From the NCBI GenBank assembly GCA_045533905.1, contig JAZSIR010000021.1, forward strand, positions 32,001 through 96,000: DNA of 64,000 nucleotides, given 5' to 3'. This document shows positions 20,386-39,004 of the stretch, one piece after another. The translations under genes were made by a program, and so were the position numbers. Source of the DNA: Clostridia bacterium. Its GTDB lineage: Bacteria > Bacillota > Clostridia > UMGS1883 > UMGS1540. The notes beneath the pieces were generated by a model that ran no database searches, had not been told where the DNA came from, and was given only the letters and a program-made list of their open reading frames with translations. The first letter of the stretch is position 1, and each line of letters opens with the position of its first letter.

Positions 20386-20426
20386 TTATTCTGTTTTCTC
20401 CGCTTCCGAGAATATATTCTCAATAA
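20386..20426 (-). repeat. Truncated spoIVB 3' tail remnant (copy 5)
   Basis: 20396-20426 matches 33667-33697 at 27/31 nt; followed by hairpin 20365-20381. Confidence 0.7.
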
Positions 20427-21705
20427 TTCCCAAATCCCAACAAAGTCTTGATAAAACATATTTATCTCTTATATCCTTTGTGGCTTTAAAGGTTATTGGC
20501 AAAAGTTCTTCATCGAGTCCTATTTCCGCCATTGTTTTCGGAAGACTGGCCTTGTCAAAAAGATTTTCGAGTTCCGAAAACGCAGGCAGCTCCTCCTCGA
20601 TAATTTGCAAAATTGCATCCCACTTGGAAAGCAGTGTCCCAAGTCTTTTTCTGTGACTTTCCAAATTATATTTCTGTTCTTTCTCTTCGAGCGCAATCAT
20701 CGCTTCTGCACCTTTGCCGAGAAATTTTCTCAATGTTTCACTCCACGCCGCAAAATCAAACGCTTCCGCATACGCCAAAGCTTTTTGCCTTTCAGGCGTA
20801 CAGTTTTTTATTTTCTCATAAAGTTTAACGGCTATCAAAGTACCAACCGCACATTGAATGCCGTGAAATTCTACCGCCTCTCCGAATTCTACGCCACGCA
20901 TATCCCAAATATGAGAAAAATAATGCTCAACGCCGGAAGCAGGACGGGACATTCCCGCAAATTTCATAGCAGCTCCGCATATAACCAATCCCTCAAATAC
21001 TGCCTTGACCGCATTTTCATCCCGCTGCAAAAGCCCCTCGGCATTATCAACACACTTCTTTAAAGAACTTCTTACAAGCTCTGCTACCTTCTCGCAATAA
21101 TATTCGCCGTTTATAAGATGCGAGATGCGCCATTCACAAATGGAAACATACTTTGCAAGCATATCACCAAGTCCCGAAAGCATCATTTTTATGGGGGCAT
21201 TACACAAAATGTCCGTATCGCCAAAAATCACATCGGCACATTTACTGTCGAGAGAGGTTTTGAGGCCATCCATTGTCATAGAGGATGTTGCAGAGGCATA
21301 CCCGTCCATAGAGGGCGCTGTTGCCACTATGATATAGAGCCTTCCGGTAACGTTTGCAACAATTTTGCCAATATCGTTGATTACACCCGAGCCGACTGCC
21401 AAAATTAAATCACAATCTTTTTTGTAGTGCATAATGGCACTGCCGGTACTTGTTTCGTCCGGATGTAAAATTTCATCCCTGTAAATGTGGGAAAGTATCT
21501 TCGTTCCGGAAGAGGCAAGAATTTTACAAACCGCATCGCCTGCCGCGGTGAATGTGTTTTCATCCGCAATCAAAAACACTTTTTCCGCATGCAGTTTTTG
21601 TAACACCTGCGGCAATTGATGGATTACCCCTTTGCCGACTATCACTTCCGATTCGAATGTGTGTGCTTTTCCGCATGTACACTGTTTTGTATGTATCAAA
21701 TTCAT
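20386..21705 (-). CDS. sn-glycerol-1-phosphate dehydrogenase (AraM/EgsA family), C-terminus apparently derived from a spoIVB tail
   Basis: VGSGVINDIGK, TAPSMDGYAS, GDMLAKY, RPASGVEH and HGIQC motifs; ends IENIFSEAEKTE. Confidence 0.85.
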   Translation of the reverse strand: MNLIHTKQCTCGKAHTFESEVIVGKGVIHQLPQVLQKLHAEKVFLIADENTFTAAGDAVCKILASSGTKILSHIYRDEILHPDETSTGSAIMHYKKDCDLILAVGSGVINDIGKIVANVTGRLYIIVATAPSMDGYASATSSMTMDGLKTSLDSKCADVIFGDTDILCNAPIKMMLSGLGDMLAKYVSICEWRISHLINGEYYCEKVAELVRSSLKKCVDNAEGLLQRDENAVKAVFEGLVICGAAMKFAGMSRPASGVEHYFSHIWDMRGVEFGEAVEFHGIQCAVGTLIAVKLYEKIKNCTPERQKALAYAEAFDFAAWSETLRKFLGKGAEAMIALEEKEQKYNLESHRKRLGTLLSKWDAILQIIEEELPAFSELENLFDKASLPKTMAEIGLDEELLPITFKATKDIRDKYVLSRLCWDLGIIENIFSEAEKTE

Positions 21706-21816
21706 ATCATCACCAATTTAATTTTACCAAATATAGAGAGAATAATCAATACTTGAATATTATCTTGACAAAACAATCATCAATTGATTATAATAGTGAT
21801 TAAATAATAGAAACGG

Positions 21817-22524
21817 GTGATTATTTTGTCGATACATACTAGAGAAGAACTGTATATCAAACTCTTGGCGGAAAGAGAGCATACAGTTCGGGACCTGGCA
21901 AATAAACTTTTTGTGAGCGAACCTACGGTGCGGCGTGATATACTTGTTTTGGAAAAGAAGGATATTATCACACGCAAAAGAGGTAGGGTAAATCTCAAAA
22001 TAAATTCTGCTGATAAACGCATTCCGTTATTTATTCGCGATATGGAAAACAACCCATCTAAAAGGCAAATAGCGCTTAAGGCTTTATCTTACATTAAAGA
22101 TGGCGATACGATTATACTGGATGCCTCCACCACGGCCTACTGCCTGTTGCCGCATCTTGTAAATTTCAAAGAACTTTTCGTAATAACGAACGGCGCAAAA
22201 ACAGCTATTGACCTAGCGGCAATGGGGATCAAAACCATATGCACGGGCGGGGAGCTTACCGAAGAATCCTTTTCGTATGTCGGAACGGATGCCGAGAGCG
22301 TTTTAAGTCGCTATAATGCGGATGTAGCTTTTTTCTCCTGCAGAGGGATAACAGAGGATGGTTTTGTTACAGATAACTCTATTTTAGAAAATTCTATGCG
22401 AAAAATTATGATAAGGAATGCAAGAAAGAGTTACCTTCTTTGTGATAAAAGTAAGCTTGGAAAAACCTATCTGAATACACTTTGCCACAAAAATGAACTG
22501 GATGGCGTTATAACGGATACGTAA
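21817..22524 (+). CDS. DeoR/GlpR family transcriptional regulator
   Basis: LFVSEPTVRRD HTH, LDASTT, ITNG and LCDKSK motifs. Confidence 0.92.
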   Translation: MIILSIHTREELYIKLLAEREHTVRDLANKLFVSEPTVRRDILVLEKKDIITRKRGRVNLKINSADKRIPLFIRDMENNPSKRQIALKALSYIKDGDTIILDASTTAYCLLPHLVNFKELFVITNGAKTAIDLAAMGIKTICTGGELTEESFSYVGTDAESVLSRYNADVAFFSCRGITEDGFVTDNSILENSMRKIMIRNARKSYLLCDKSKLGKTYLNTLCHKNELDGVITDT

Positions 22525-22529
22525 TATAT

Positions 22530-22561
22530 AGGGCGTGCCTCACTATATTGAGGCACGCCCT
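22530..22561. terminator. Terminator after spoIVB tail copy 4 and convergent deoR-like gene
   Basis: AGGGCGTGCCTCA...TGAGGCACGCCCT followed by a T-run. Confidence 0.8.
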
Positions 22562-22562
22562 T

Positions 22563-22697
22563 TTACTTATTTGTTTTTCCCACTTCCGAGAGCATATTTT
22601 CAATAAAAATCCCATACCCGCGCGTGGGGTCATTGACGAAAACGTGTGTTACAGCTCCAATGAGTTTGCCATTCTGAACGATTGGGGAGCCGCTCAT
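22563..22697 (-). repeat. spoIVB 3' tail, copy 4
   Basis: Translates [44 protein letters not shown]. Confidence 0.95.
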
Positions 22698-22700
22698 GAC

Positions 22701-22721
22701 TGTTGTCAATGGGGGACAACA
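22701..22721. repeat. Cassette-end palindrome
   Basis: TGTTGTC-AATGGGG-GACAACA, 3 nt from the tail start. Confidence 0.92.
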
Positions 22722-22767
22722 AATTTTGAGGAATTTTCAAATCCAAGTTATGTTATATGTACTTTTA

Positions 22768-23976
22768 TCAATCAACTACACAACCATTGGCATCCACCCA
22801 TTTTTTACTGTCTACGTCAACACAAATCAACAACTTATTTAAATCAGTATCGAAAATCTGCTGTCCAAAAGACGGATAATAGCTGAGTCTTTCTGCAGTG
22901 CTGCAAACAGTTTTGTGGGTCATATTGATTGTGCGAAAGCCTTTACCTGAGCCATTTTCAAAAAGTTTAAAATTGGTTTCGTTTGTATGATTCCAGTCAG
23001 GCTGAAGTGTATATTCAATTCTTCCGCAAAAAGCTCCCGGGTGAATTTCACGCATAACATCCCCGAGTTTTCCTCCGGGGGTTTGGGTAGCCAAACGTTC
23101 GATGTTAAAGCTTATCATAGAAACTTCCTGACCGCCGATTAGAATATTACCATCACGGCCATGGTCACCACATTGATTAAACAATGGTAAGTTCACATTT
23201 CTTTCGTCGCAACAGTTAATCATGGTGATAGGATGATTGTATCCACAATTAAAATCGTAGTTACCAAAAGTATAGCCATAAACATTATGTGCTGCCGCAC
23301 AATTTAACATAACAACATGTTCTCCGCCCACCTGAATTCCTTCATAGAAACCACCTGATGTAACATTGTCATAGCGAACAATAAAGTTATTGCTACCATC
23401 GGTCATTGTAAGTCCGATGCAGCCTTCTTTTGCCATATCTGTTACACCCAAATATGTATTATCACGCTTTCCGCGAAGTCTGACATTTTTCATCTGAACG
23501 CGGTCGCAACGACGCAAATCTATGCAGCGAACAGCTTTCTGATTATGCGCCAATGTCATAGTAATATTTTCGAGATTCAGAACCGCTCCGCTATATAAAC
23601 CTCTGTTTTTCCATTCGGTACGAAAAACAGAATATTCACCTTCTTCTATTTTAGAAAGTGCTTCCTCAGAAACATCAATCTGTACGCCCTCACGATTTTG
23701 TTCGAAGCTGAACGATTGTCCGATAATTGCAATTTCCTTATATAAAGCAGGTATCCTAATAGCTGCCATGGGTCCGCCATCTTCAAAATCATAAAAATCA
23801 TCTACACAGTAAACACCGTTCAAAAGATAAACATTCTTTCCTTCTTCTGCGGCAGTCTTAATAGCTTTGTTTATCACAAGTTCATCATTTTTCCCTGAAC
23901 AAACAAAATCAATGCCATCCTTTTCATTAAATTTTGAATTCGATGCAGCAACAGTTATAAAAGGTGAAAAACTCAT
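22768..23976 (-). CDS. Hypothetical protein, probable pectin-lyase-like beta-helix
   Basis: DELVINKAI..VYLLNGVY N-terminal pattern and Asn/Gly-rich repeats; fold is an inference. Confidence 0.55.
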   Translation of the reverse strand: MSFSPFITVAASNSKFNEKDGIDFVCSGKNDELVINKAIKTAAEEGKNVYLLNGVYCVDDFYDFEDGGPMAAIRIPALYKEIAIIGQSFSFEQNREGVQIDVSEEALSKIEEGEYSVFRTEWKNRGLYSGAVLNLENITMTLAHNQKAVRCIDLRRCDRVQMKNVRLRGKRDNTYLGVTDMAKEGCIGLTMTDGSNNFIVRYDNVTSGGFYEGIQVGGEHVVMLNCAAAHNVYGYTFGNYDFNCGYNHPITMINCCDERNVNLPLFNQCGDHGRDGNILIGGQEVSMISFNIERLATQTPGGKLGDVMREIHPGAFCGRIEYTLQPDWNHTNETNFKLFENGSGKGFRTINMTHKTVCSTAERLSYYPSFGQQIFDTDLNKLLICVDVDSKKWVDANGCVVD

Positions 23977-24015
23977 AAAATCTACTCCTTTTTAATTTTT
24001 ATTCGGGTTAATACC

Positions 24016-24864
24016 TTAAATATTTAAAAATACTATGGATGCAAGTCCTGTTAAGAAACCTGCAAACTGTATTTTTGTCAGTTTTTCTTTATAAAATACT
24101 TTTGAAACAACATATGTAACAATAATTCCCCCTGCCGAAATCAGCGGAAACATAACGGATACAGCCATTGTTCCCGATAACACCATAACAAGCAAATTAA
24201 CAATACCATTCATAGCACCGGAAGCAACAGTAATAAACCGAGCATGATAAAAATTGCTTTTGAAATTATCTTTATTTGTTACCAAAGTGGCTACTGCAAA
24301 AATCAAAAACACAATTGCGAGAGAAATTATCATAAATTCATTTTTGTATTCACCGTCGAATTTAATTTGTTGCATTTTCTGAACGGTTGTACAAAGACCA
24401 TTGCCGGCAAACGAAAGAAAAACAAATAAAAGCCATTTTGGTGTAATAGGACACTTGTCATTATTCTTGTTCACAAGGAAAAGCGAAATCGCAAGCAATC
24501 CAAGACCAATTATAAAATATATGCTTATTGGTTCCCTGAGAAAAGCAATTCCGTAAAAGGTTGGAATCATAAGTGAATATGAAATCATAAGTGACGAAAG
24601 TGACAAAGAACCATTTGCAATAGCAAGCATACCAGATAGTGAAGCGGTTGAAAATGATAAGGCAAAGGCTATCGAATATGGAACAATCCCGGGATTCCAG
24701 CTAATATTCTTTGAAGTAACAAGAAAGAACATCATTGAAAAAAGCGCTGTAAGGGATAAAAAAAGATATGTACCATTTGTACCTGTCTTTTCTGTATAGA
24801 ATTTTTTAGCAATGCTCTGACCGGAAACGCCGGCTATTATAATTATCAAATATATAATGTTCAT
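24016..24864 (-). CDS. EamA/DMT family transporter
   Basis: About 10 hydrophobic segments in two repeats (FLREPI, FYKEKL). Confidence 0.8.
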   Translation of the reverse strand: MNIIYLIIIIAGVSGQSIAKKFYTEKTGTNGTYLFLSLTALFSMMFFLVTSKNISWNPGIVPYSIAFALSFSTASLSGMLAIANGSLSLSSLMISYSLMIPTFYGIAFLREPISIYFIIGLGLLAISLFLVNKNNDKCPITPKWLLFVFLSFAGNGLCTTVQKMQQIKFDGEYKNEFMIISLAIVFLIFAVATLVTNKDNFKSNFYHARFITVASGAMNGIVNLLVMVLSGTMAVSVMFPLISAGGIIVTYVVSKVFYKEKLTKIQFAGFLTGLASIVFLNI

Positions 24865-25021
24865 ACGTTATGGCTCTATTTTCATCTGATACTACAAACA
24901 ATCCCCATCAACTATATAAATTGTACCACTACATATTAATTTTTGTAAATAAATTATATTCTTTAAATATTGCAATATCTTCCCAACTATTATATAATAT
25001 TGTTTAGAGGAGGCGTTAAAA

Positions 25022-25828
25022 ATGATTATAAAATACAATACAGAAAAGTTGCGACGTATTATAACCGATATAACCACCTTGACTGGAATAAGCGTAGCCG
25101 TATTAGATACAGACTATAGCACCATAATAAGAGGACCACAGAGTAAAGAGTATTGCTCATTGCTGCAAACAATAGAAATTAAAAAAAAGCATTGCAAACA
25201 GTGTGATACAAGAATCTTAAACCGATGCCGTTCCTCTAAAAATTTGGAAAGTCACATATGCAGTGCGGGTCTTTATGATTCTGCAATGCCCATTATAAAA
25301 GACGATAACATCGTCGGATATGTCATAATGGGGCAGGTACGTTCTATGGACTCTCCTGCTCTGCCTAAATATTTACCTGATACAGATCCTCAAACACTTA
25401 AAAAGTTAAATAAAATCTATGAACAAACTCCATTTATTTCAAAAAATCAATTGGAAGCACTGTATGATCTTCTGCCTCATATTCTATTTGATAGTGCGAT
25501 TGAGTTTGTGTACGATCCTGTTGCAATTGATATACTTAAGTTTATTGATGCAAATTTGCAAGCGGATTTAAGTATAAAACAGCTATGTGAAAGATTTTAT
25601 ATATCAAAAAACCGATTATATGAAGTTTTTCGGAACAATCTAGGATGCACCGTTACAGGATATATTAACGAACAACGCATCAAGCAAGCAAAAGAATTAC
25701 TTAAACAATCAGACGATTCTATCTGTAATATTGCCGAAAAGGTAGGTATTTACAATTATACATATTTCTGTAAACTATTTAAAAAGCTCAGTGGAGTCAC
25801 ACCCACTGAATACAGAAAAAAGCCATAA
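25022..25828 (+). CDS. PocR-sensor AraC family regulator
   Basis: N-terminal YC..CKQCD..HICSAGL..GQV PocR pattern; C-terminal YFCKLFKKLSGVTPTEYR. Confidence 0.88.
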   Translation: MIIKYNTEKLRRIITDITTLTGISVAVLDTDYSTIIRGPQSKEYCSLLQTIEIKKKHCKQCDTRILNRCRSSKNLESHICSAGLYDSAMPIIKDDNIVGYVIMGQVRSMDSPALPKYLPDTDPQTLKKLNKIYEQTPFISKNQLEALYDLLPHILFDSAIEFVYDPVAIDILKFIDANLQADLSIKQLCERFYISKNRLYEVFRNNLGCTVTGYINEQRIKQAKELLKQSDDSICNIAEKVGIYNYTYFCKLFKKLSGVTPTEYRKKP

Positions 25829-25842
25829 AAGGTTTACGTAAA

Positions 25843-25873
25843 AATGCTCACTTATGAAATATAAGTGAGCATT
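25843..25873. terminator. Terminator after spoIVB tail copy 3
   Basis: AATGCTCACTTAT-gaaat-ATAAGTGAGCATT. Confidence 0.75.
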
Positions 25874-25877
25874 AATG

Positions 25878-26009
25878 TTATTTAATTTTCTCCGCTTCAG
25901 CCAGCATATTCTCTATAAATATCCCATATCCACGTGTCGGGTCATTTACAAAAACGTGTGTCACAGCTCCAATGAGTTTGCCATTCTGAACGATTGGGGA
26001 GCCGCTCAA
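25878..26009 (-). repeat. spoIVB 3' tail, copy 3
   Basis: Translates (TTG)[42 protein letters not shown]. Confidence 0.95.
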
Positions 26010-26012
26010 GAC

Positions 26013-26033
26013 TGTTGTCAATAGGGGACAACA
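26013..26033. repeat. Cassette-end palindrome
   Basis: TGTTGTC-AATAGGG-GACAACA. Confidence 0.92.
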
Positions 26034-26035
26034 AA

Positions 26036-28231
26036 TCAGATAAGTTTTTCTAACTCTGCCAGAATTCTATCGGCAATATTCTTCATCCCAATATCTCCGG
26101 GATGGTTTGCAACACCCTCGTGGCTAAATAATCCTATTGCTTTCATTTCATTAAGTTCACCCAGGTCTCCAAGTTCAATACAGGTCAAATTATTTTCTTT
26201 TGCATATTCTAAAATGATTTTATCACCGGGATGTTTCCAAAATCCTGTTGTTAATATAACTTTGGCCTTTAATGATTTGTTTAAATAGTCAAGCAGTTCT
26301 CCCAGTTCACGTTTGAATATTTCACAGTCAAATTCATTTTGCGGACAATTTTCAATAAAACGCATCACGATAATATCAGCATCAAAGCTGCGGGCTTCTT
26401 CAAAGAGATAATGTTTGGTTGAGCCATTTTTATATTCCATTTCCCATTCCGCAACCTGACAGATGCAAAACGCCGCATCGGCTGATTTTTCCGAAACCGC
26501 AGACATCACACGATGAACATAGTCGTTTTCGGGACAGGAAGCCGCCATTCCGCATTCGTTGTACCAGCCTATCTGCGGGCGGAAGCCGTGGAGTGTCATC
26601 GAATTTCCCACAAACATCACTCGTTTACCTTTGCCATTCAAATTAAAAAATCGAATATGCCCACTATTATTGAGTTGATGACCGGCACAAACCGTATTTT
26701 TCTGAAGTTGTTGGTATTCAGATGTTTTATAACAGATATTCTGCGTAAACTCTCCTGTAACGAATTGGTTCTCGTCAAAGTTTTTAAGAAGTTCTTGGTT
26801 CCAATACAAATTCTCAATCAATATATCTTTGGTTTGGTGGGTATCATCATAACCTTTGAAATATAGCGTTGGCTTTTGGCGACCAAAGAGGTGAATGTTA
26901 CTGAACAACATATTTCGATTGATGCCTCTGCGTGTGCCACCAGCAGAATACTCATGATGGAAACTGCTGACAATATGTATAAGATCAGGTGCATAATCTA
27001 AATTGGTGTTTTGATATGTTTCTGAATCTTTATTTTGAATAACACCTATTGGAATCACATCATCGTACTCTATATTTATATTTTTATACACCACATCATG
27101 CACATCGGCATAATCCACGTTGGAGCAGTCAAGTACATGACCGGTAACGTGTATGATGTTGCAGTTCTTAAAAACAATATTGCTTATTTCTTCCGCCCTT
27201 GTTTCTGCCCCGATTTCAAGACTTTTTCCCCAGTCGTTCCATATGGTGCAATTTTTTATAACTGTGTTCTTAAAAACATCGTAAGCTTTTCCTTTACGAT
27301 ACATTGCCTCTTTTACCGCTTTTTCAACATCATCTTCATGATAGCAATCAAAGCCTTTTACACAGATTGAATCATCAAAGGTTCGTAAAAAGCAATTATC
27401 TATAACAACATCTTCGCAATTGTGCATATCAATACCGTCTGAATTGTAACGCCAGCAACCAATAATTTTAACATTTGAAATATGCATATTTTTGCAACCG
27501 ATTGGTCTTATATTATAAACCAATGAATCGCGGATGGTGATGCCTTCAATTTTAATATTGTTACAATATTCAAGTTGAACTGTGTGCTCTCGTTTTGCAT
27601 TATTGACTGCCGAAATATTATTTTCTGCATTATACTCAAAAAGTATTTTCTCAGTGTTTTTACTGTTGTCAAGAATACCTCTGCCCAAAATTTTTATGTT
27701 TTCGGAATCTATTGATTTTACACAGGCATAAACCACCGCACCTTCGTCAATAAACAATGTCTGATTGCTTTTTAATACAATTTCTCCGGCATAGTGTTCA
27801 CCTTTGCCGAAATATATAACATTAGTATTGTTATAATCAATGTCATAGCAAGGTGTGGGATCAGAAAAAATATGAAGTGCATTATTTCTGCCATACGGCT
27901 CAACGGTAAAATAAGCAGGCTTTTCAAGAGTAAATGTGATTTTTCCGTCTTTGATTTCCGGTGTTATACCCAATGACAACGGGCGTATAATAACTTCCTC
28001 AAAGGGATTTTGAGGAATTATTTCAAAAGACACCGATTCATCTGAAGAAAGTGAAAGGAAATTAACAAGTTCGGTTTGAGCTTTACTACGCTGATGCCCC
28101 GGCCAGCGACGGTTAAAAGGGAATGCAGACACACGGGCAGTATCAAGTGTTACCGGTTGTCCGTTCACTTTAACCTTATAATTTTCTATGTGGTCTTTGG
28201 TTTGTGTTACAGGATAAATATTTATCGACAT
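26036..28231 (-). CDS. GH28-like beta-helix glycosidase fused to a C-terminal SGNH hydrolase domain
   Basis: NSDGID and FDDSICVKG (GH28-like); GNSMTLHG and NHPGDIGM (SGNH blocks I and V). Confidence 0.75.
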
Positions 28232-28383
28232 ATCTTTGACTCCTTGTATTTTAGAATTACTATGACAATTATAATATTAAAGCAAGTAGAAAAATAGGTA
28301 ATTTTTTAATATTAAAGGTATATATTTATTGACATTTTTGAGGATGCAATATATAATAGTCGTTATAAAAACCCCAAAGGAGT

Positions 28384-29286
28384 TTGATATGTGTGTATGT
28401 TTATAAAATCAAAATAAATTGTTTGCCAAAACTAATATGGGCTTGCGAAGTTACTGTTGAAAACTATGAATGGAGAAATCGCAATAGCAAAGATGTGTTG
28501 GAAATTTCGTATTCAAAATTTGACACAAAATCTGTTACCCTTAATAACAATAACTTTCTACTGAAAAACAACACTCTATCCTGCATAGTGGCTGATGAAA
28601 ACCGTACAGCCTCCTGCAAATCGGGAAAGCCAATAACAATTGTATCAGTTGCTGTTAGTTTAAGTGATTTTAAATACCAACCATGCGAACTTGTTGAAGC
28701 TGACTTGAGTGATGAAACAGTTCTTATATTGCCTTTTTATTTGGAAGAGTTGCCAATTAATTATGAACTTGAAATAATAAAGAAACTTCATGAAATCATT
28801 AAACTATCTTCCGCTGATTCGGAAAACAGAAAGATTGCTTTAGCATCTGCATTCTTTAACCTGATATGTGAGATTGATAAAATAACACGAAATAATATCT
28901 GCAGCCAAAACAACAGCGTCAATTATTATGTAAAAAAAATTGATTACATTATCGAATCCAGATATAATGAGAAAATCACTCTCCAGTCAGTTGCATCAGA
29001 GTTGAATATATCACCGGTTTACCTGTCAACCATTTATAAAAGCATAACCGGTATAAATTTTTCGGAGCAACTTCTTATTGTGCGGATGAAACACGCAGAA
29101 AATTTATTGTTTGATCAAAATATTTCCACAACAAAGGTTGCAGAACTTTGCGGATTTTGCGATGAAAATTATTTCAGGAAAAGATTCAAACGTTTTTTTG
29201 GTATGAATGTAAGCGAGTGCAGAAAAATCAAAAACGGATTAACGCTCTACCACGAAAAACCTCAAAGAAAAAATGACAGCTGCTAA
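28384..29286 (+). CDS. AraC family regulator
   Basis: C-terminal double HTH (ISPVYLSTIYK; CGFCDENYFRKRFK); start uncertain. Confidence 0.88.
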   Translation: MICVYVYKIKINCLPKLIWACEVTVENYEWRNRNSKDVLEISYSKFDTKSVTLNNNNFLLKNNTLSCIVADENRTASCKSGKPITIVSVAVSLSDFKYQPCELVEADLSDETVLILPFYLEELPINYELEIIKKLHEIIKLSSADSENRKIALASAFFNLICEIDKITRNNICSQNNSVNYYVKKIDYIIESRYNEKITLQSVASELNISPVYLSTIYKSITGINFSEQLLIVRMKHAENLLFDQNISTTKVAELCGFCDENYFRKRFKRFFGMNVSECRKIKNGLTLYHEKPQRKNDSC

Positions 29287-29305
29287 ATTTAGCGGCTGTC
29301 ATTTT
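29270..29305. terminator. Terminator after spoIVB tail copy 2, overlapping the AraC stop
   Basis: AAAATGACAGCtGCTAAA/TTTAGCgGCTGTCATTTT. Confidence 0.7.
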
Positions 29306-29308
29306 AAA

Positions 29309-29461: not shown

Positions 29462-29464
29462 GAG

Positions 29465-29485
29465 TGTTGTCAATATGGGACAACA
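29465..29485. repeat. Cassette-end palindrome
   Basis: TGTTGTC-AATATGG-GACAACA. Confidence 0.92.
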
Positions 29486-29499
29486 ATTTTTTATATTTT

Positions 29500-30309: not shown

Positions 30310-30409
30310 ACAACCAACTCATTTCTTTGTTTTTTGATAAAATAACTTCGTTATATGCATTGATTATAACATAATTAAATATTATAATCAAGAAAAATAA
30401 TAAAAGAAG

Positions 30410-32713
30410 GTGCTTTTTGTGAAAAATCCATTAATTACAATGTCAGCCGTTACAGGAAGGCCATCATTGAGTTTTGTCCAAAATTATATGAAATCTCTTA
30501 AGGAAAATGGTATTGAACAAGTTATGATTTACCCGAGGTCAGGATGTGAGCTTGAATATTTAAGCAACGACTGGTTTAAGACGGTAGAATACTTTTTAAA
30601 GTGTGCAAAGCGGTTGGATATGAACATATGGTTATATGATGATTTTAATTGGCCGTCAGGGGATGCGGGCGGAATGGTTTCAAAAAAATATATGTTGAAA
30701 TCAATTACAACAGTAGGGAAAAATATAGGTGAAATCAGTACATATTCAGAGCATAATGGTAAGATTTTCGGAATAAAATCTTTTCCCGATTTGCTGTCTT
30801 TTGATGCTGTTGATTACTTTATAAACATCACTCACGAGCAATATTATAGACATTTTAAAGAATATTTTGGAAACACAATAAAAGGTATTTTCACCGACGA
30901 GCCAAGCATTGGATATTGCTGCAACAATTCATCTGTGCCATATTATGAACAGCTCCCCGATGATTATAAAAGCTTGTGCGGAGATGACTTTTATGATGAT
31001 ATGGAGCTTGGCAGAGACAAGTTTTACGAAACCGTTATGCTTGCAGTGGCAAACAGGTTTAAAGCATGCTATGTTGATAAAATACGCAATTGGTGCGAGG
31101 AACACTCAATAGATATGTGTGGTCATATGATATATGATCACGAGCCTTGCGCTGCAACCCGAAATAACGGCAATTTATTGACAATGCTTTCGTCATTCTC
31201 TATTGCGGGAGTAGATGAAATTAACACCAATCTAAATGATTCCACTCTCCTTTCTCTTTTCGGTGCTGCCCAATATGCAAGAAAGGGTAATTATGCTATG
31301 GCAGAATTATTTGCATTAGGACCGTGTGATATGTCATATACATTAAGAAAAAGTATGATTTTTTATTCTGCCTGCTTCAAAATAAACCTTTACTTTCTGG
31401 CAGTTTCTCATATGGATATGAGAGGAAATACCGCAATACTTGATTATTTTAATGATTTCTCAATTTCTCAGCCGGATTTTTCAGGAATGAAGCTTTTGGC
31501 ACAAGAGGCACAGTTAGCGGCTGAATATGCAGATAAGGATTTTACACCCGATGTATATATTGAATATCCTTCAGAATTATGTGCCGGTAACTTGATGAAT
31601 AAAAATTTTAATACCAATATTTTTATAGCTCTTTTAAAACGACTTACCTACTATCAGATACAGTGGAAATTTATCGATAAAGGTGATGATACAAACAATA
31701 TTGAAGTAATCAGACTTACAAAGGATAATACCTTAAAATACGCACATATCACAACAACCGATATAGATGAAATATGCAAAGCCCTTGCACAAAAACCGCT
31801 TGTTATCAATATTAACGGTGAACTGTGTGAAAATATTTTTGTGCGAAAATTTGATGATGGCAGCTTTGTTGTAATTAATCTTGATGCCGCACCGTCAAAA
31901 TATATTATAAACCGCATTGATAAAGAGATTGACGGTTTTGGTGTAGTAACTGACAAGGATGTAATTCCTACCGAGTATAAAAAAGTAAAAGCTGAAATTC
32001 ATGATTTTAATGTAAATTACTGCAATAAAAATATTATTCGTTGTATGTATGTTAATTCACAAGATTCAGCAATCATTAAAAGCAACTCAAATCAAACAGT
32101 TGAATTTGTTTTGAGAAACGATGCAAAAGCATATATTGACAATGAAATCATTACTGCACAAAAATTTTGCACCGACATTCCGTTTGGAATGCAATGTCTT
32201 TACAAATCATCAGAATCCATAACACTTTGTAATGGCAGCTTTGTTGTAACATCAAGCAGCGATTATAAATATATGCCAAGTGTTCTTATAAAGGGCGACT
32301 TTGACGCAGAAAGTATAAGCGGAGATGTTTGTCAAATCAATCTTTCTCCACGAAAAAACACACTTTGTATCGGTGATTATATAAGCAGTTTTGGGAAAAT
32401 TGAACTTTCTCAAAAAGTGTTTGTTCCGAAGGAAGCAAAATTTTTAGAGTTAAAAGGAACAACGCTTTATACCTGTGTATCAATAAACGAAAAACCGGTA
32501 GGCGAGAGAATATGCTCTCCGTATATTTATAAAATTGACAGTAAATATTGCGATAGATTTGTGGATTTAAAAATAGTACAATATTCAAGCATTGCACCTA
32601 TTTTTGGTGATGTGGAATATTGGGACAAGCATTCCAAAAATGTGTCGTGGAAAGGCATTAAATCACCACAAAAAACCAATTTCGGAGTAGCAGGAGCAGA
32701 GTGGTTGGTATGA
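30410..32713 (+). CDS. GH106-like (alpha-L-rhamnosidase-like) glycoside hydrolase
   Basis: IYPRSG..YLSNDWF, WLYDDFNWPSG and GIFTDEP motifs. Confidence 0.65.
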   Translation: MLFVKNPLITMSAVTGRPSLSFVQNYMKSLKENGIEQVMIYPRSGCELEYLSNDWFKTVEYFLKCAKRLDMNIWLYDDFNWPSGDAGGMVSKKYMLKSITTVGKNIGEISTYSEHNGKIFGIKSFPDLLSFDAVDYFINITHEQYYRHFKEYFGNTIKGIFTDEPSIGYCCNNSSVPYYEQLPDDYKSLCGDDFYDDMELGRDKFYETVMLAVANRFKACYVDKIRNWCEEHSIDMCGHMIYDHEPCAATRNNGNLLTMLSSFSIAGVDEINTNLNDSTLLSLFGAAQYARKGNYAMAELFALGPCDMSYTLRKSMIFYSACFKINLYFLAVSHMDMRGNTAILDYFNDFSISQPDFSGMKLLAQEAQLAAEYADKDFTPDVYIEYPSELCAGNLMNKNFNTNIFIALLKRLTYYQIQWKFIDKGDDTNNIEVIRLTKDNTLKYAHITTTDIDEICKALAQKPLVININGELCENIFVRKFDDGSFVVINLDAAPSKYIINRIDKEIDGFGVVTDKDVIPTEYKKVKAEIHDFNVNYCNKNIIRCMYVNSQDSAIIKSNSNQTVEFVLRNDAKAYIDNEIITAQKFCTDIPFGMQCLYKSSESITLCNGSFVVTSSSDYKYMPSVLIKGDFDAESISGDVCQINLSPRKNTLCIGDYISSFGKIELSQKVFVPKEAKFLELKGTTLYTCVSINEKPVGERICSPYIYKIDSKYCDRFVDLKIVQYSSIAPIFGDVEYWDKHSKNVSWKGIKSPQKTNFGVAGAEWLV

Positions 32714-33216
32714 ATATTTTTGCATGGACAAGTGGTATTCTCGGAATAACTGCAAATGTGATAATCTATCAGCAAGAAAGCGGTAAACGAGTTTTGATAT
32801 ACAAGCTTATTTCTGATTTTATATGGGTTTTTCACTATTATACACTTAACGCATATTCGGGGATGGCGGTAGCAATGGTAGGTATTTTAAGAGAAATTGT
32901 TTTCTTAACCCAACAAAAAACGGAAATATCAAAAATCTGGCTGATAATTTTCATGGGCGTTGCGATGGTATGTGCATCCTTCACATGGAAAGGTGTAATA
33001 AGCTTTCTGCCCGCCACAGCTTCTGTTTTGTCGGTTATAAGCTTTTGGAAAGCAAATCCGGTATTTACAAGAATAATTGCCTATCCTATTTCTATTTGTA
33101 TGTTAACATACGATATTGTATATAAATCATATACAGGAATTACTAACGAAGTATTAACTTTTATTTCATCTACAATAGGTATAATACGAATGCGTAAAAA
33201 GGTAAATTTAATATAA
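32701..33216 (+). CDS. YgjV-like inner membrane protein
   Basis: Hydrophobic protein of ~170 aa with QQ..K, HY..L.AYSG and YD...SYTG patterns. Confidence 0.65.
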   Translation: MVGMNIFAWTSGILGITANVIIYQQESGKRVLIYKLISDFIWVFHYYTLNAYSGMAVAMVGILREIVFLTQQKTEISKIWLIIFMGVAMVCASFTWKGVISFLPATASVLSVISFWKANPVFTRIIAYPISICMLTYDIVYKSYTGITNEVLTFISSTIGIIRMRKKVNLI

Positions 33217-33229
33217 AGGGGTAATAACA

Positions 33230-33594
33230 ATGAGCGAATTAAGAATGGGTGTAATTAATTAGGAAAGAACTTTAATACGCTATTGATGCCGGGATTATGA
33301 AAAAAATGGCCTAACAGATTTTCCTGAAGATACCGGTATCAGGGTTATACAAAGACAGAGTGTATCCCCGGTCCAACAAATCAGGAGTTAAAAGATGGTG
33401 CTGATATGTTTTGCAGATGGATGGAAGAAAATATAAGCTATATGAAAAGGATGCATATCCTGACATTTGCATGGAATGAATTCGAAGAAGGAGCATGGCT
33501 GTGCCCCACATGTATTGATGACTCAAGTATAGACGATAGCCGTATTAAAGCATTTTAAAATATTGTAAAAATGTGGAAGTCAAAGCTTGGGTAA
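33230..33594 (+). pseudogene. Decayed glycoside hydrolase gene (GH99-like/WbsX-like)
   Basis: RBS and MSELRMGVIN*, fragment YAIDAGI, and ILTFAWNEFEEGAWLCPT with in-frame stops, frameshifts and apparent internal deletion. Confidence 0.6.
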
Positions 33595-33622
33595 GCTTTT
33601 ATATAAATATTAATATGTGATA

Positions 33623-33655
33623 AATATGCTCGCCTTTAATAAAGACGAGCATATT
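33623..33655. terminator. Terminator after spoIVB tail copy 1
   Basis: AATATGCTCG...CGAGCATATT. Confidence 0.7.
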
Positions 33656-33656
33656 A

Positions 33657-33788
33657 CTATTTAATCTTCTCAGCTTCGGAGAGCATATTCTCAATAAATA
33701 TCCCATACCCACGGGTTGGGTCATTTATAAAAACATGAGTTACTGCACCAACTAACTTGCCATTTTGCAGGATGGGTGAACCCGACAC
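33657..33788 (-). repeat. spoIVB 3' tail, copy 1
   Basis: Translates (GTG)[42 protein letters not shown]. Confidence 0.95.
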
Positions 33789-33791
33789 GAC

Positions 33792-33812
33792 TGTTGTCAA
33801 TAGGGGACAACA
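33792..33812. repeat. Cassette-end palindrome
   Basis: TGTTGTC-AATAGGG-GACAACA; contains the stop codon of the activase gene. Confidence 0.92.
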
Positions 33813-34678
33813 TTTTTCACACCGATGGCTTTGATTTTTTCTGCAACCAATGCAATTTCATCCTTTGTAGGTAATGGAACCATTGACAAAGGATAACCAA
33901 GCTCCATACACTCATATTTTCTTTCCGCATAGTTGTGATAAGGCAGTATCCGCAGTACTTTTACGGATTTTAAATCTTTAACAAAGGCTGCAATTTTCTC
34001 CGCTTCACCGTCATTCATTGTTGGTATGTATGGATATCTTATTTCTATAGGGATACGCAGAGAATCGATATATTTTATGTTTTCAAGTATCTGTTTATTT
34101 GATACTCCTGTGCATTTTGTGTGAATATCCTCATTGATAGCCTTTATATCAAAGAGAAATGTGTCGGTATAGGGGATGATTTTATCAAAAGCCACTCTGT
34201 TTACAAATCCGCTGGTGTCCACGGCAATATTTATATCGTGTTCTTTCAGAAGCTTTGCAATTTCTACGCAAAAGTCCGCCTGCATAAGCGGTTCACCACC
34301 GGAAAAGGTTACACCTCCGCCACTGCCTTTCATAAATATTTCGTCTTTAAGAACTTCTTTTGCTATTTCCTCTGCAGAAGATGTTTTACCTGAAATTTCG
34401 AATGCATTATTGGGACAGATATCTTCACATTTCCCGCATAACGTACATTTTTCTTTGATAAACATATGCTTTTCGTCTTTGATTACATTTGCCTCACATA
34501 TTTTGGTGCATCGCATACAATTACCGCAAGCAGTTTTGTCAAAAAGTATTTCTTTTTCAAAGGAAAATGATTCCGGATTGTGACACCATTTACATCGGAG
34601 GGGACACCCCTTGAAAAATACAGTTGTTCTTATGCCATCGCCGTCGTGAATTTCAAAAGGCTTTATAGCAAAAATCAT
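33797..34678 (-). CDS. Glycyl-radical enzyme activase (radical SAM) with ferredoxin-like insert
   Basis: [26 protein letters not shown], extra CxxCxxC clusters, [10 protein letters not shown]. Confidence 0.93.
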
Positions 34679-36876
34679 TAGCCCGACACCTCACATTGCT
34701 TTATAAACATATCTTGTTTTACTTTGCTGAGCTTTACAAAATATTCATTCCAGCCACATACCCTTACCTGAAGAGTTGAATATTTTTCAGGATATTTCTG
34801 AGCTTCAATCAAAGTCTCTCTTTTTACTATATTTCCCTGCATTGCAAATCCGCCATTATCGAGGAAGATTTTGATAAGAGAAATAAAGTCCTCAAGACCT
34901 TTTTCGCCTTCAACGGCAGAAGGATGTAATATAAAATCAAACGGTACTCCGTCTACAAAAGATGCTGAGTCAATTTTCAATACAGATTGCATATATGCGG
35001 TAATACCGCCCCTGTCCATTCCGTCGGATGCACACAGATTTTTGGAAATCGGTTTTTTTGCATTTCTTCCGTCAGATGTAGCAGATGTTTTTTCTCCGTG
35101 TTTTATACAATGATATACCGAATCAAGTCCAAGACGCACCTTGCCGCCTCTTTCGAGATTCTTGTTGCAATAACGATTGGCAAGATTTTCTAAAATGTCG
35201 GTCATTATCTTATCGGGAATGGTCATATTATTTCCATACTTTTCTTTGTCGTTGATAATTCTCTTTTGCAAATCTTCAAACCCTTTCCAGTCTGACAAAA
35301 GAGCTCTTCTCATATCGTCAAGTGAAATTTCCTTAAGGTCAAATACATATTTTTTTATTGCAACAAGAGAATCCACCGTAGTTGCAAGACCGTGATGCTT
35401 TAAAGATAAATTATTATACTTCAAAGGATATTCGTGCACATCCATACCTTTTTCAATACATTCTGAAAAACTACTCGAATATATAGGCGAAGGATTAATA
35501 AGTGTACTGTATTCTCCTTGCTTTTCAATGAAATCCAACGCAAAGTCGGTGCAGTAATTCAGTTGTTTTAAGTAGATGTCAAAAAACTCCTCAAAACTTT
35601 TAATATCTGTTTTACTTTCATATCCAACCTGAGAATCTGTCATAATATCTCTACCGCCATTTATAGCAAATTCAACACATTTTACCGTATTAAAACGAAG
35701 TGCCGAAATTTCACCTTCTTCCAATCCCATAATAATAGGCTCATAACAACCAAGTATAACATAGTTCTGTGAATCTTCTTTAGGTATGCCGATTTTTTCG
35801 TATGCATCAAATACCGCTTCGTCATTAATAAGACATATACTGCTGTGTCCGCCTCTTATCATTAAAGCGGCTTTTCTTATGATTTTTTCGTCTATGTTTT
35901 TATGACATCTTATGTGAATTTTGGGGTCATAAATGCCCATTTCATCATATACGTTTAAAATAAGATGACTGAGCTCATTAGTGTAATCATTTCCGTCCTT
36001 GTCAGAACCGCACATGGTAAATGGTTGTTCAGCAAATCTTTTTGCCGCTGTGAAATGAATGAAATAATACCTGAAGAGCTCTTTAATTTCTTCTTCTGTT
36101 TTTCCTGTTGCCTTGTCTTTTTCAAAATATGGAAAATACATTCTGTCAATGGGCCCGAGTGTTCTGGCTTTTTCGACTCCGATTTCCTCAAAATAAAGAT
36201 AGAGTATGGAAAATTGCATTACCTCATACAAATTTTCGGGTGGCTTTGTCATAAGATTTTTTATGCACCTTGAAAACTCCGGCACATTGAATTTAAGTGA
36301 ATATGTGTATATTCTGTCAAGAAGTCTTAAAATTGCATTATAGCATATTAATACAGAGTCAAGAAAAACAATTTGTTTATCCAGATAGTTTCCGCTTGCT
36401 ATAAGCTTTTCTTTTGAATTTTTAACGTTTTTAATAATTCCTGCAAAACCATTTTCCAATAGATATGACCAGTTGGGAACAGTATGAATAAAATCAACCA
36501 TCATCCAATCAAGACCAACATCTGCAAATTTTTTAAATTTTTCATATTCTTCAGGGAGCTTTTTTTTGCGAATTTTTTCTGTTTGCGAATAAAAAGCTTT
36601 ACAAAAAACAGTATCTGTAGCAAAATAAGAATAGTCAATTCCAAGGTTTAGTTTTACCGAAAATGGTGTATGCTCATTGATTTCCAGTTGCAGATTATCC
36701 AAAAGATACGAATATGCATTTGCGCACACAATTTCCCTGGGTAATTCTGTTTCGTAATTTTGAAATTCCTGTAGCTTTGATAATAAGATTTTGGGTGAAA
36801 GTCCTGTGGATTCATCCCAGATTGCTTGTTCAAATCCATTTTGTATGAAGTCTCTGTTTTCTTTGAATTTTTGCAT
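34678..36876 (-). CDS. Glycyl-radical enzyme (PFL-like family, not classical PflB)
   Basis: Single-Cys loop GCYEP; C-terminal LQVRVCGW glycyl loop; adjacent activase. Confidence 0.88.
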   Translation of the reverse strand: MQKFKENRDFIQNGFEQAIWDESTGLSPKILLSKLQEFQNYETELPREIVCANAYSYLLDNLQLEINEHTPFSVKLNLGIDYSYFATDTVFCKAFYSQTEKIRKKKLPEEYEKFKKFADVGLDWMMVDFIHTVPNWSYLLENGFAGIIKNVKNSKEKLIASGNYLDKQIVFLDSVLICYNAILRLLDRIYTYSLKFNVPEFSRCIKNLMTKPPENLYEVMQFSILYLYFEEIGVEKARTLGPIDRMYFPYFEKDKATGKTEEEIKELFRYYFIHFTAAKRFAEQPFTMCGSDKDGNDYTNELSHLILNVYDEMGIYDPKIHIRCHKNIDEKIIRKAALMIRGGHSSICLINDEAVFDAYEKIGIPKEDSQNYVILGCYEPIIMGLEEGEISALRFNTVKCVEFAINGGRDIMTDSQVGYESKTDIKSFEEFFDIYLKQLNYCTDFALDFIEKQGEYSTLINPSPIYSSSFSECIEKGMDVHEYPLKYNNLSLKHHGLATTVDSLVAIKKYVFDLKEISLDDMRRALLSDWKGFEDLQKRIINDKEKYGNNMTIPDKIMTDILENLANRYCNKNLERGGKVRLGLDSVYHCIKHGEKTSATSDGRNAKKPISKNLCASDGMDRGGITAYMQSVLKIDSASFVDGVPFDFILHPSAVEGEKGLEDFISLIKIFLDNGGFAMQGNIVKRETLIEAQKYPEKYSTLQVRVCGWNEYFVKLSKVKQDMFIKQCEVSG

Positions 36877-37010
36877 AATTTAATCACCTCTTGCAATGTA
36901 TTATACCTTTGCTTTAACGCGAAGTAAATGCATTATAGAGTCAAATAGATGTAAAAATCCGTCATTGACATTTATGGATATTTATTGTATAGTTTAATTG
37001 GTGATGATTT

Positions 37011-37781
37011 ATGAATGATATATGTATCAAAGAAATAGTCAATGTTTACCACAGGAATAAAATCATGTGGAGAAGAAATTCTTTTGCTCCACGTGCTTTC
37101 GATGCTGTTGTTTTATTTACACACGGAGAAATAGAATATAAATTTTCTGACAAAACCTTTGTTGCAAAAAAAGGTGATTTTCTATTGTTGCCGTGCGATA
37201 TTGCATATTCAGGAAAAATGCATACTGATAATGCTTCTTATTATGTAGTAGACTTTAGGTGTTTATGTGCTGACGAATTTAAAAATTATATAGCACCGGG
37301 TGTTTTTAAAACAGAAAATTTTGGTTTGTTTGTTTCTAAATTTGAAAATGCAGTGAAATCATGGGATGTTCACACACTCAATGCAAATCTCAAAATCAAA
37401 TCATTACTTTATTCTGTGCTTGCAGAATTCCAAAAACAGAAAGAAATGAATTTTAAAACAACAAGTATTTATGATATTATAGAATACATATCTGATCATA
37501 TTGGTGATTCAAATCTTAATGTAACAGAGTTATGCAGACTGTTTCATATATCGGATTCTCAACTCAGAAGAAATATTTTAAAAAATACCGGCTTATCTCC
37601 AAACGAATATATATTTACAATAAGAGTGAACAAAGCAAAAAACGAACTCTCGTACACCGATAAACCGATTCAAATGATTTCTTACGAATGCGGCTTTTCA
37701 TCACCATATTATTTCTCAAGATGTTTTTCCAAAAGTACAGGAATGTCCCCCTCAAAATACAGAACACTCACCCGTACATGA
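37011..37781 (+). CDS. AraC family regulator
   Basis: CGFSSPYYFSRCFSKSTGMSPSKYR. Confidence 0.9.
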   Translation: MNDICIKEIVNVYHRNKIMWRRNSFAPRAFDAVVLFTHGEIEYKFSDKTFVAKKGDFLLLPCDIAYSGKMHTDNASYYVVDFRCLCADEFKNYIAPGVFKTENFGLFVSKFENAVKSWDVHTLNANLKIKSLLYSVLAEFQKQKEMNFKTTSIYDIIEYISDHIGDSNLNVTELCRLFHISDSQLRRNILKNTGLSPNEYIFTIRVNKAKNELSYTDKPIQMISYECGFSSPYYFSRCFSKSTGMSPSKYRTLTRT

Positions 37782-37794
37782 GCAGGTGAGTGTT
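37763..37794. terminator. Terminator after spoIVB, overlapping the AraC stop
   Basis: AACACTCACC...GGTGAGTGTT. Confidence 0.7.
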
Positions 37795-37804
37795 TTCGAT
37801 TCTG

Positions 37805-39004
37805 TTATTTAATTTTCTCCACTTCCGCTAGCATGTTTTCAATAAATATCCCATAACCTCTTGTTGGATCATTCACAAAAACGTGAGTTATTGCACCAAC
37901 GAGTTTGCCGTTTTGGATTATAGGCGAACCCGACATACCTTGCACGATGCCGCCGGTGAGCCGCAAAAGGCGCTCGTCCGTGATTTTCAGGACCATACTT
38001 TTTCCGTTTCCGCTGCGGCGCGAAAGTTTTTCGATTTCGACGGTGTACGCCTTTTTCTCGCCGTCAATACTGCTGAAGATGACGGCATCGCCTTTTTGTA
38101 CCTGTGTGCTCGCAGCAATGGGGACGGAGATGCCGTCCTTTCCCATTTCGCTTTTGCCGAAGAGGCCGACGGCCTCATTTTTCAAAATGGTGCCCACATC
38201 CGCTCCGAACACGCCGCGCACCGCGCCGGGAACGCCGTTCTCCCCTTTATCGATCTGTACGATTTCGCACGCGGTGATGCTGCCGTGCGCAGGCGGCACG
38301 GCTTCTTCGGTATCGGGGTCGAGAATCGCGTGGCCGAGGGCCGCGTAGGTGCCGTCCTCGGGAATGTAGAAGGTGACGGTGCCGATACCGGCTGTGCTCT
38401 CGCGCACCCAAAGGCCGAGCTTGTAGGCGCCGCCATCGGCGTACCAGACGGGTGTGATTTCCGCATCCCACTGCTTTTCCCTGCGGCAGACCGTGAGCGT
38501 CATCGCTTTGCCGCCGCTTTTTACAACGGCCTCCTCGAGCATATCGCTCCCCGAAAGGCGTGCGCCGTTCACGGCCACGATTCTGTCGCCCGCACGGATG
38601 CCGGCTTCCTTCCCCGGGGCGCGGCCTGTTTGGGGAATTTCGGAAAGGCCGATGACGAGAACACCGTCCATATACAGCTTAATGCCGACTGCCTCGCCCC
38701 CTAACGTGACGTTTCTGCCCTCCACCACGCTTACGGCGGCCGTCCGCCGCCAAAGGCCGAAGGCGGAAAGGTCCATCGTATACGCGCCGGCCTTTTCGGG
38801 CGTTACCAGAAAGCGGTTGTCTTCTTTTGTAAAATGAAAATCGCCTTCGGAAGCGATGGGCGCAACGAAGGCGGGCAGGGCGTGCTTTTCCCCGCGGAGC
38901 ATCACAAACTCCGAAGGCAGAAGCGTGCCGTAAAAATAACAAAAAATCAAGGAAACAGAAAGCGCGCCGACAGCGAGACGGCGCGCGTATTTTTGCCTCT
39001 TCAT
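37805..39004 (-). CDS. spoIVB: SpoIVB serine peptidase (S55)
   Basis: N-terminal membrane anchor, PDZ domain, GLWVRES.AGIGTVTF, ALGH and [26 protein letters not shown] motifs. Confidence 0.95.
   Translation of the reverse strand: MKRQKYARRLAVGALSVSLIFCYFYGTLLPSEFVMLRGEKHALPAFVAPIASEGDFHFTKEDNRFLVTPEKAGAYTMDLSAFGLWRRTAAVSVVEGRNVTLGGEAVGIKLYMDGVLVIGLSEIPQTGRAPGKEAGIRAGDRIVAVNGARLSGSDMLEEAVVKSGGKAMTLTVCRREKQWDAEITPVWYADGGAYKLGLWVRESTAGIGTVTFYIPEDGTYAALGHAILDPDTEEAVPPAHGSITACEIVQIDKGENGVPGAVRGVFGADVGTILKNEAVGLFGKSEMGKDGISVPIAASTQVQKGDAVIFSSIDGEKKAYTVEIEKLSRRSGNGKSMVLKITDERLLRLTGGIVQGMSGSPIIQNGKLVGAITHVFVNDPTRGYGIFIENMLAEVEKIK

Follow-up and report, generated by a model that had tools for sequence, protein, structure and literature searches.

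A stack of recombinase-less gene cassettes at spoIVB in a Clostridia bacterium, likely delivered by a spoIVB-splitting integrative and conjugative element

Introduction

A 64,000-nucleotide stretch of a Clostridia bacterium genome (assembly GCA_045533905.1, contig JAZSIR010000021.1, positions 32,001 to 96,000 of the forward strand), here called the window, contains an intact copy of the sporulation gene spoIVB and, beside it, a series of copies of the last codons of that gene with other genes between them. How did the end of one gene come to be repeated along an island of cargo genes, and which enzyme placed the copies there? An initial annotation of the window proposed an integron-like platform at which small circular cassettes insert repeatedly, using a recombinase supplied in trans or homologous recombination through the gene's tail. 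Our comparison with other genomes and metagenomes suggests that the island is built of stacked cassettes without a recombinase, each of which starts with a spoIVB tail and ends in one arm (P) of a serine-integrase attachment site (attP), likely delivered hit-and-run by an ICE (integrative and conjugative element) that carries a triplet of large serine recombinases (LSRs) and splits spoIVB. We put the probability of this reading at about 0.6. Genomes compared are labelled G, with G000 the source assembly, and loci are labelled L.

Results

The end of spoIVB is repeated along an AT-rich island

Intact spoIVB occupies positions 37805..39004 on the minus strand and codes for 399 aa with profile matches to TIGR02860 (above cut-off) and PF05580. 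Its last 43 codons are repeated, again on the minus strand, at 33657-33788, 29309-29461, 25878-26009 and 22563-22697, and a remnant lies at 20386-20426. The tail copies are thus where the initial annotation had placed them and in the same orientation, with 65-88% identity to the reference copy; the remnant is 65-73% identical to the other tails over 55 nt. Pairwise, the window tails differ by 14-29%, and tails 3 and 4 have their first 44 nt in common. The island spans 17.5 kb with a GC content of 0.35, against 0.50-0.51 in its flanks. It divides into five units of 4148, 4327, 3452, 3312 and 2271 bp, from gene-proximal to distal, with the layout tail, terminator, cargo, P arm. Units 1 to 4 are closed by a P arm. 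The proposed division into five units of an AT-rich island is therefore right in length and composition but not in its closing palindrome, which the fifth unit lacks.

The palindrome TGTTGTC-N7-GACAACA occurs four times in the window (shuffle mean 0.16), each copy ending 3 nt ahead of a full displaced tail as annotated, and nowhere else in the 1.57-Mb assembly at one mismatch or fewer. Hairpins after the five full tails are strong (z -4.9 to -7.0), which bears out the annotated terminators, and the hairpin after the remnant is weak (z -1.1). The displaced tails were thought to share a start at the Met of GMSGSP. They do begin at the same point, but their first codons are GTG, GTG, TTG and ATG, so that the gene has only TG in common with them, and their first base comes from the element side. 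We take the serine that follows this Met to be the catalytic serine of the spoIVB product. In B. subtilis the catalytic serine is Ser378, and the motif is not printed in the available portion of that source (PMC6581720). A Pfam scan of the 54 window ORFs found no integrase, transposase, relaxase or phage family, in agreement with the initial annotation, and genome searches found no serine or tyrosine recombinase on the island's contig (C15), where PF00589 gave no match.

The palindrome is one arm of a serine-integrase attP

Displaced tails were first sought by protein search in 60 relatives, where they are present in several genera. A P arm precedes 12/12 of the Met-starting displaced tails found by protein search alone, so the palindrome recurs with tails elsewhere. 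The corresponding count over all loci, 64/67, is biased because most of those loci were recruited by the arm pattern, and 12/12 is the unbiased figure. A scan of species genomes, queried with the right half of the motif and the start of the tail only, returned at least 124 loci (about 170 estimated) with at least 127 distinct junctions. Among the 127 junctions listed, the left half of the motif, which was no part of the query, shows no mismatch in 101 and a single one in 19; the crossover position reads NTG in 124; and 65 carry GACATCA, making the palindrome imperfect.

Three LSR genes end right before the P|tail junction in L050 and L051. Such a triplet precedes 16/127 of the junctions listed in the genome scan, or 17 counting L157, and all three recombinases of L050 and L205 carry PF00239 and PF07508. 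The partner arm, P', follows the 5' part of spoIVB in 8/9 of the split genes listed, and the ninth also matches. It carries the inverted repeat GGGACAAC, follows the ATG and ends in GGGACAACA, the inverted partner of the P arm. Joined, P and P' form a typical serine-integrase attP centred on TG. An identical attB/attP pair is listed for LSR cluster5844 in supplement file 3, row 721, with target gene 'NA' (PMC10083194), and its attB matches the split point within spoIVB, GM|SGSP. Searches for spoIVB, triplets and cassette arrays gave 0 matches in the main text of that paper and none in the 8 supplementary files searched.

Judged by these sequences, the palindrome is no independent hairpin but forms the left arm (P) of a double-stranded attP. 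Taken together, the triplet, the split gene and the attP arms identify the window junctions as attR sites (P|tail) of a spoIVB-splitting ICE family. The predicted crossover core is the TG of the Met codon at 37934..37935 on the minus strand, as suggested by NTG in 124/127 listed junctions, by the form of attL (ATG, then the P' arm) and by the published attB/attP row. The four P arms of the window, each the palindrome plus 3 nt on the minus strand, lie at 33789..33812 (attR 1), 29462..29485 (attR 2), 26010..26033 (attR 3) and 22698..22721 (attR 4). The first has a 27-nt identity to the arm after the G122 triplet and the second differs from the G122 ICE arm at 2 positions.

Two recurrent non-coding modules were seen about 150-200 bp before the P arm, one at 15 junctions (L070, L072, L095, L116, L124 and others) and the other at 12 (L066, L074, L078, L097 and others). 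Both are absent from the window units and might represent promoters, small RNAs or transfer origins.

A family of ICEs with a recombinase triplet splits spoIVB

The 5' part of spoIVB stops at residue 357-360 in 9/10 triplet genomes and lies away from the tail; in the tenth only the tail was seen. In metagenomes, the third recombinase is followed by a spoIVB tail at 72/80 loci, two join other sequence and the rest are degenerate or incomplete. Both ICE ends lie on one contig in G061, about 72 kb apart, with T4CP, VirB4-like, TrbL, ParAB and RepA_N genes between them; no relaxase family was found among the 38 G061 ICE proteins scanned. With three tandem recombinases at the element end and spoIVB split at TG, this element has two of the features by which triplet ICEs are recognised; T4CP, VirB4-like and TrbL may represent a third, the conjugation module. 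Together, these results suggest that the helper family consists of ICEs, seen to split spoIVB in other gut Clostridia, whose three tandem LSRs are predicted to cross over at the TG of the Met codon. The recombinase that the initial annotation had supposed to come from elsewhere is thereby identified with this triplet.

The 72-kb ICE of G061 (L205-L208) also carries SIR2, NACHT and deaminase-domain proteins resembling defence genes, a ThiF/Prok-E2 module and a sortase-pilus cluster. At L260 and L273, the P arm past the third recombinase joins non-spoIVB sequence, that is, secondary integration sites.

No cognate triplet was found in the 95.5%-complete source assembly, and no P' arm in the window or the source genome. 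Serine recombinases of the source genome itself, on contigs C8, C11 and C7, were considered as the cognate helper and rejected, as they have at most 34% identity to the triplet and score 278 bits against 801 for a true member; they could conceivably still have some cross-activity on spoIVB sites. One of them is a single LSR at a contig end (C8:36633-38357, L003), and a separate low-GC island (C11:365-30680; L001, L002, L004) ends in serine recombinase genes; both are non-cognate. An RAYT/IS200-type transposase was likewise rejected as the enzyme, with fragments near only 2/127 of the junctions listed. A Y1 (IS200/RAYT-like) transposase gene does lie directly behind spoIVB in L044 (12370-13200) and L056 (12271-13023).

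Tail and cargo move together, and the newest unit probably adjoins the gene

Fetched loci yielded 58 P-ended units of 352-7379 bp (median 3.5 kb). In L041, L095, L124 and L130, the tail and 1.1-2.2 kb behind it are 92.8-94.1% identical from the ATG on, and the 750 nt of spoIVB upstream are only 52-54% identical. Between G384, from another family of the class, and G085, from the window's own order, 930 nt ending at the P arm are 98.6% identical and the tails behind differ. These alignments show that tail and cargo travel together horizontally with the breakpoint at the ATG. With that breakpoint found in four hosts, the proposal of integrase-less mobile units that insert site-specifically at spoIVB and carry its 3' end is upheld.

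The GC content at third codon positions (GC3) of the live gene falls from 0.71 upstream of the Met to 0.31 in the tail (p 2e-6), compared to a drop of at most 0.16 in 20 control relatives. By this composition, live spoIVB is a chimera of a host 5' part and the tail of unit 1, and the join at the GMSGSP Met codon is a regenerated attB. Among 14 arrays with at least two displaced tails, decay of the distal arm has gone further in 9 and less far in 2 (p 0.03). GC3 correlates with that of the host at rho 0.43 for the displaced tail and rho 0.22 for the live tail, with kin not independent. Collectively, these results lend modest support to the annotated order, in which the newest unit adjoins the gene.

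When the left and right tails of each unit are compared, the first 51 nt reach 94% identity or more in 9/54 units, against 0.7% of 2836 background pairs, and the last 51 nt do so in 11/54 units, against 1.1% of background. This suggests that homologous exchange between tails does act, as was proposed, but as a secondary process that trims and mixes units. In L043 (7346-7585), the end of spoIVB is also duplicated over a greater length, upstream codons included, with an altered GMSG motif; this event is unlike the P-bounded units.

A P' arm lies 130-220 bp ahead of the P arm in L101, L111, L137, L149, L156, L164 and L183. In L101 and L111 the intact gene is followed by cargo and this by a P' arm, with the P arm 170-220 bp further on, and L093 and L279 contain tandems of an ICE and a mini-element. 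Across the 58 units, a loose P' pattern gave 2 matches against 0.55 in shuffles. Tiny elements in which 70-200 bp separate the P' and P arms were noticed, some as tandems, in L388 (140-270, G236), L279 and L093. They are possibly derivatives of ICE ends resembling miniature inverted-repeat transposable elements. No recombinase remnants were found before cassette arms.

Junctions outnumber split genes in the class

Junctions were detected in 18/87 genomes of the order, one of them doubtful (G080, two mismatches), with 3 control matches, and in 26/401 genomes of the class, with 1 control match. Split spoIVB was found in 2/401 genomes of the class. A third candidate, G236, matched the attL pattern and was rejected because its gene is not split, so the count is 2 rather than 3. 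The two genomes, G384 and G122, have ICE left ends that are 98% identical, and in each there is also a P|tail junction with cargo other than recombinase in front of it.

Cargo of the window units is trimmed against the P arms

The cargo consists of regulators and mostly sugar- and fermentation-related genes: a glycyl radical enzyme with its activase, a GH28-like protein, EamA and YgjV proteins, a dehydrogenase and two proteins without a family match. Each unit opens with a terminator-like hairpin and has its own divergent regulator and promoter-like sites. All five units lie on the minus strand. Unit 1 (33789..37936) comprises the tail at 37805-37936 and its hairpin, a convergent AraC regulator (37011-37781, plus strand), the glycyl radical enzyme (34678-36876, minus) and the activase (33797-34678, minus). 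Unit 2 (29462..33788), with the displaced tail 33657-33788 and a hairpin, carries a YgjV-type membrane protein (32701-33216, plus), a 767-aa protein with no Pfam or NCBIfam match above threshold (30410-32713, plus) and an AraC regulator (29500-30309, minus). Unit 3 (26010..29461), with the displaced tail 29309-29461 and a hairpin, carries an AraC regulator (28384-29286, plus) and the GH28-like protein (26036-28231, minus), whose end is 2 nt from the P arm. Unit 4 (22698..26009), with the displaced tail 25878-26009 and a hairpin, carries a PocR/AraC regulator (25022-25828, plus), an EamA-like transporter (24016-24864, minus) and a 402-aa protein with no Pfam or NCBIfam match above threshold (22768-23976, minus). 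Unit 5 (20427..22697), which lacks a P arm, has the displaced tail 22563-22697 with its hairpin, a DeoR regulator (21817-22524, plus) and an iron-dependent, glycerol-1-phosphate-type dehydrogenase (20386-21705, minus).

The last codons and stop of the unit 1 activase fall within the P arm (33792-33812), and the final genes of units 2-4 terminate 2-47 bp short of theirs. The cargo is thus trimmed hard against the P arm. The unit 5 dehydrogenase gene runs in frame into the tail remnant (20386..20426, minus), which now forms its last codons; homologues of the dehydrogenase diverge from the window at about 20420, and one contig follows 19451-20424. The remnant is likely the oldest tail, fused through a deletion that took the fifth P arm. 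A glycyl radical enzyme with activase recurs as cargo in L043, L045, L069, L126, L138 and window unit 1, and as the enzymes are 22-27% identical, this points to several separate captures. The neighbours of the island are MATE and gyrB/parE-type genes by Pfam.

Discussion

We propose that the cassettes are passengers of a visiting ICE. The steps below are inferred, and the activity of the enzymes is predicted. An ICE would integrate at the attB of a cell with a resident cassette, giving the order B|P'-ICE-P|tail1-cargo-P|tail2. It would then excise from attL to the second attR, taking the cassette along, and ICE and cassette would conjugate together and integrate in a new host by attP x attB. 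Later the ICE would leave alone, from attL to the first attR, whereby spoIVB would be rejoined to the cassette tail, the cargo and its P arm would sit before the host's old tail, and attB would be renewed. With attB regenerated, the cycle can repeat and older units shift outward. Ordinary attP x attB and attL x attR reactions would suffice for this if the ICE is a visitor. New cassettes probably originate from an ICE whose excision runs through a secondary site past the genes that lie behind spoIVB and which later loses all but its ends, and the P'-P arrangement of L101 and L111 is possibly what such an origin would leave.

Several observations weigh against delivery by a visiting ICE. The cognate recombinase is present in 2/87 genomes of the order, and no unit among the 58 is a homologue of a whole window unit. 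The displaced tail is nearer to host GC3 in 16 cases against 12 among 33 first units. No contiguous ICE with a cassette was found, as a second tail follows in 0/38 metagenome ICE ends with at least 5 kb downstream and no such composite occurs at the ICE ends among the junctions listed in the genome scan. The co-occurrence of ICE and cassette junctions in G384 and G122 speaks for such delivery, but in both genomes they sit on separate contigs. G384 is 75% complete, the cognate recombinase is absent from its assembly, and its cargo may lie inside the ICE between recombinase and P, an arrangement that was found in L212.

The closest competitor is a possible, clearly less probable, route through free cassette circles. 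An attB x attR or attR x attR reaction would release a unit as a circle whose ends meet at P|tail, and the circle would insert at attB by a non-canonical attR x attB reaction with the ICE recombinase acting in trans, so that sites are regenerated and the gene is never broken. In its boldest and similarly tentative form, this would be an integron-like, self-renewing platform without an integrase of its own, at which a forespore protease would receive another catalytic C-terminus with each insertion by a visiting ICE triplet, and which might have evolved since a broken forespore gene is not repairable in the mother cell alone. Free circles would account for the identical end anatomy, the lack of a composite in 38 ICE ends, the rule that units have no P' arm, and the good conservation of cassette P arms (left half exact in 101/127 and with one mismatch in 19/127 of those listed). 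However, serine integrases normally refuse attR x attB pairing, and circles would need a separate route from cell to cell, and the units scanned showed no relaxase or replication gene. Contigs from sequencing runs, which were of low depth, gave no evident circle joint, and no cassette circle was found in phage, plasmid and viral collections. The match in a viral collection is an ordinary ICE end; the tail occurs in 5 plasmid and 10 phage records, and the 6 of these that were opened are intact chromosomal spoIVB. ICE and cassette ends also co-occur in G384 and G122. The small circles of the initial annotation are thus unnecessary for the pattern, and none was seen, although circle insertion and hit-and-run delivery would leave the same end product, which sequence cannot separate.

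Homologous recombination through the conserved tail, by transformation or Campbell insertion, is unlikely to have been the main route with the P arm as a relic. It would fit the near-identical tail halves (9/54 units for the first 51 nt and 11/54 for the last), the first 44 nt that window tails 3 and 4 share, and the one longer duplication with upstream codons in L043. Against it, identity in four divergent hosts begins at the ATG and is not scattered within the tail, the P arm stands at all 12 Met-starting displaced tails, and the arm is better conserved than the tails. It seems just as doubtful that each unit is the remains of an ICE decayed in place. Distal arms do decay, the unit 5 arm is lost, and L212 makes cargo between recombinase and P inside an ICE possible. 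However, an ICE brings a P' arm and not a tail, so that decay would leave spoIVB split and a unit is not a plain decayed ICE. The source genome has no P' arm, no recombinase remnant precedes cassette arms, and near-identical units occur in distant hosts. Decay in place is therefore largely refuted as the whole story and may perhaps explain the origin of the first units. Finally, a chimeric assembly of several strains' spoIVB ends is very improbable. The source genome is a metagenome assembly and no sequencing-run contig spans a whole junction of the array; the tail-to-tail joints in those runs, from low-depth contigs only, are inseparable from the spoIVB of other organisms. In one run, X3, unit 1 is covered at about 99% identity and the 5' part of the gene hardly at all, a pattern given no weight here. 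Yet 14 arrays with at least two displaced tails exist in independent assemblies, the window tails differ by 14-29% from each other, and strain mixing would not produce a P arm.

What does delivery by a visiting ICE imply? A gene-breaking ICE can seed a gene-preserving capture site. Each passenger brings a copy of the target's end and mends the gene with it, which renews attB, so that carbohydrate, glycyl-radical and regulatory genes collect at a single site. The forespore-expressed spoIVB joins the sporulation genes split by serine-recombinase elements. The natural attB, attP, attL and several attR variants of one recombinase triplet make the role of each enzyme and the acceptance of attR x attB testable. 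The arrays also account for stray 43-codon 'SpoIVB peptidase' fragments in gut genomes.

Comparison with known systems

Elements that split sporulation genes are familiar from skin in sigK and SPbeta in spsM. In gerE, the element gin carries the three recombinases GirA, GirB and GirC, as given in the available part of PMC5595907. As in these cases, a serine-recombinase element splits a sporulation gene, which holds for the ICE and not for the window units. In contrast, their targets act in the mother cell, whereas spoIVB acts in the forespore and the window holds non-disrupting derivatives. The spoIVB gene is under sigma-F and sigma-G, the forespore factors, according to the accessible text of PMC3789822. 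This forespore control may be why gene-preserving derivatives were favoured.

Streptococcal ICEs with serine-integrase triplets occur at mutT, traG and hsdM (PMC4701971, available portion). They resemble the spoIVB ICEs in having three tandem LSRs at the element end, gene disruption, a direct repeat of the 2-bp class and sometimes cargo between triplet and att. They differ in target, which here is spoIVB in Clostridia, and gene-restoring passenger arrays do not appear in that portion of the paper. LSR cluster5844 (PMC10083194) has the same recombinase family, attB point in spoIVB and attP arms, as a table row only.

Accretion with cis-mobilisation has been defined for cis-mobilisable elements (CIMEs) of the ICESt1/ICESt3 type (PMC5704250, in part). 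Like CIMEs, the window units have no integration or transfer genes, are stacked at one att site and are predicted to travel in tandem with an ICE. CIMEs, however, keep attL and attR, whereas the window units have only an attR-type end and start on the left with a fragment of the host gene; lacking attL, they depart from the CIME definition on one point. Moreover, the target gene is here disrupted by the helper ICE and restored by the passenger, and the helper does not have to remain. Composite staphylococcal cassette chromosome (SCC) islands and ccr-less islands at rlmH (PMC13739063), and the Dehalococcoides genomic islands at ssrA (PMC3146451), are, in the available text of both sources, LSR-dependent tandem arrays at a gene end with the newest unit proximal and some units recombinase-free. 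In that text, their autonomous elements leave the gene intact and carry a short repeat only. The spoIVB cassettes exchange 43 codons, including the predicted catalytic serine, and what the autonomous form does to the gene is the reverse of what the passenger does; the target also differs from rlmH of SCC.

The integron analogy fails in mechanism. There is no resident IntI tyrosine integrase beside an attI on the contig, and no single-strand attC hairpin; the palindrome is an attP arm with an inverted partner, and many copies are imperfect palindromes. The units have their own regulators and terminator-like hairpins and are not promoterless cassettes. Full-text literature searches, with thin coverage of subscription papers, found no description of elements or arrays at spoIVB. 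The arrangement, in which attR-only, integrase-less cassettes repair a gene broken by a helper ICE, is real, widespread and apparently undescribed. Collectively, these comparisons indicate that the system is a variant of CIME- and SCC-like accretion and not an integron.

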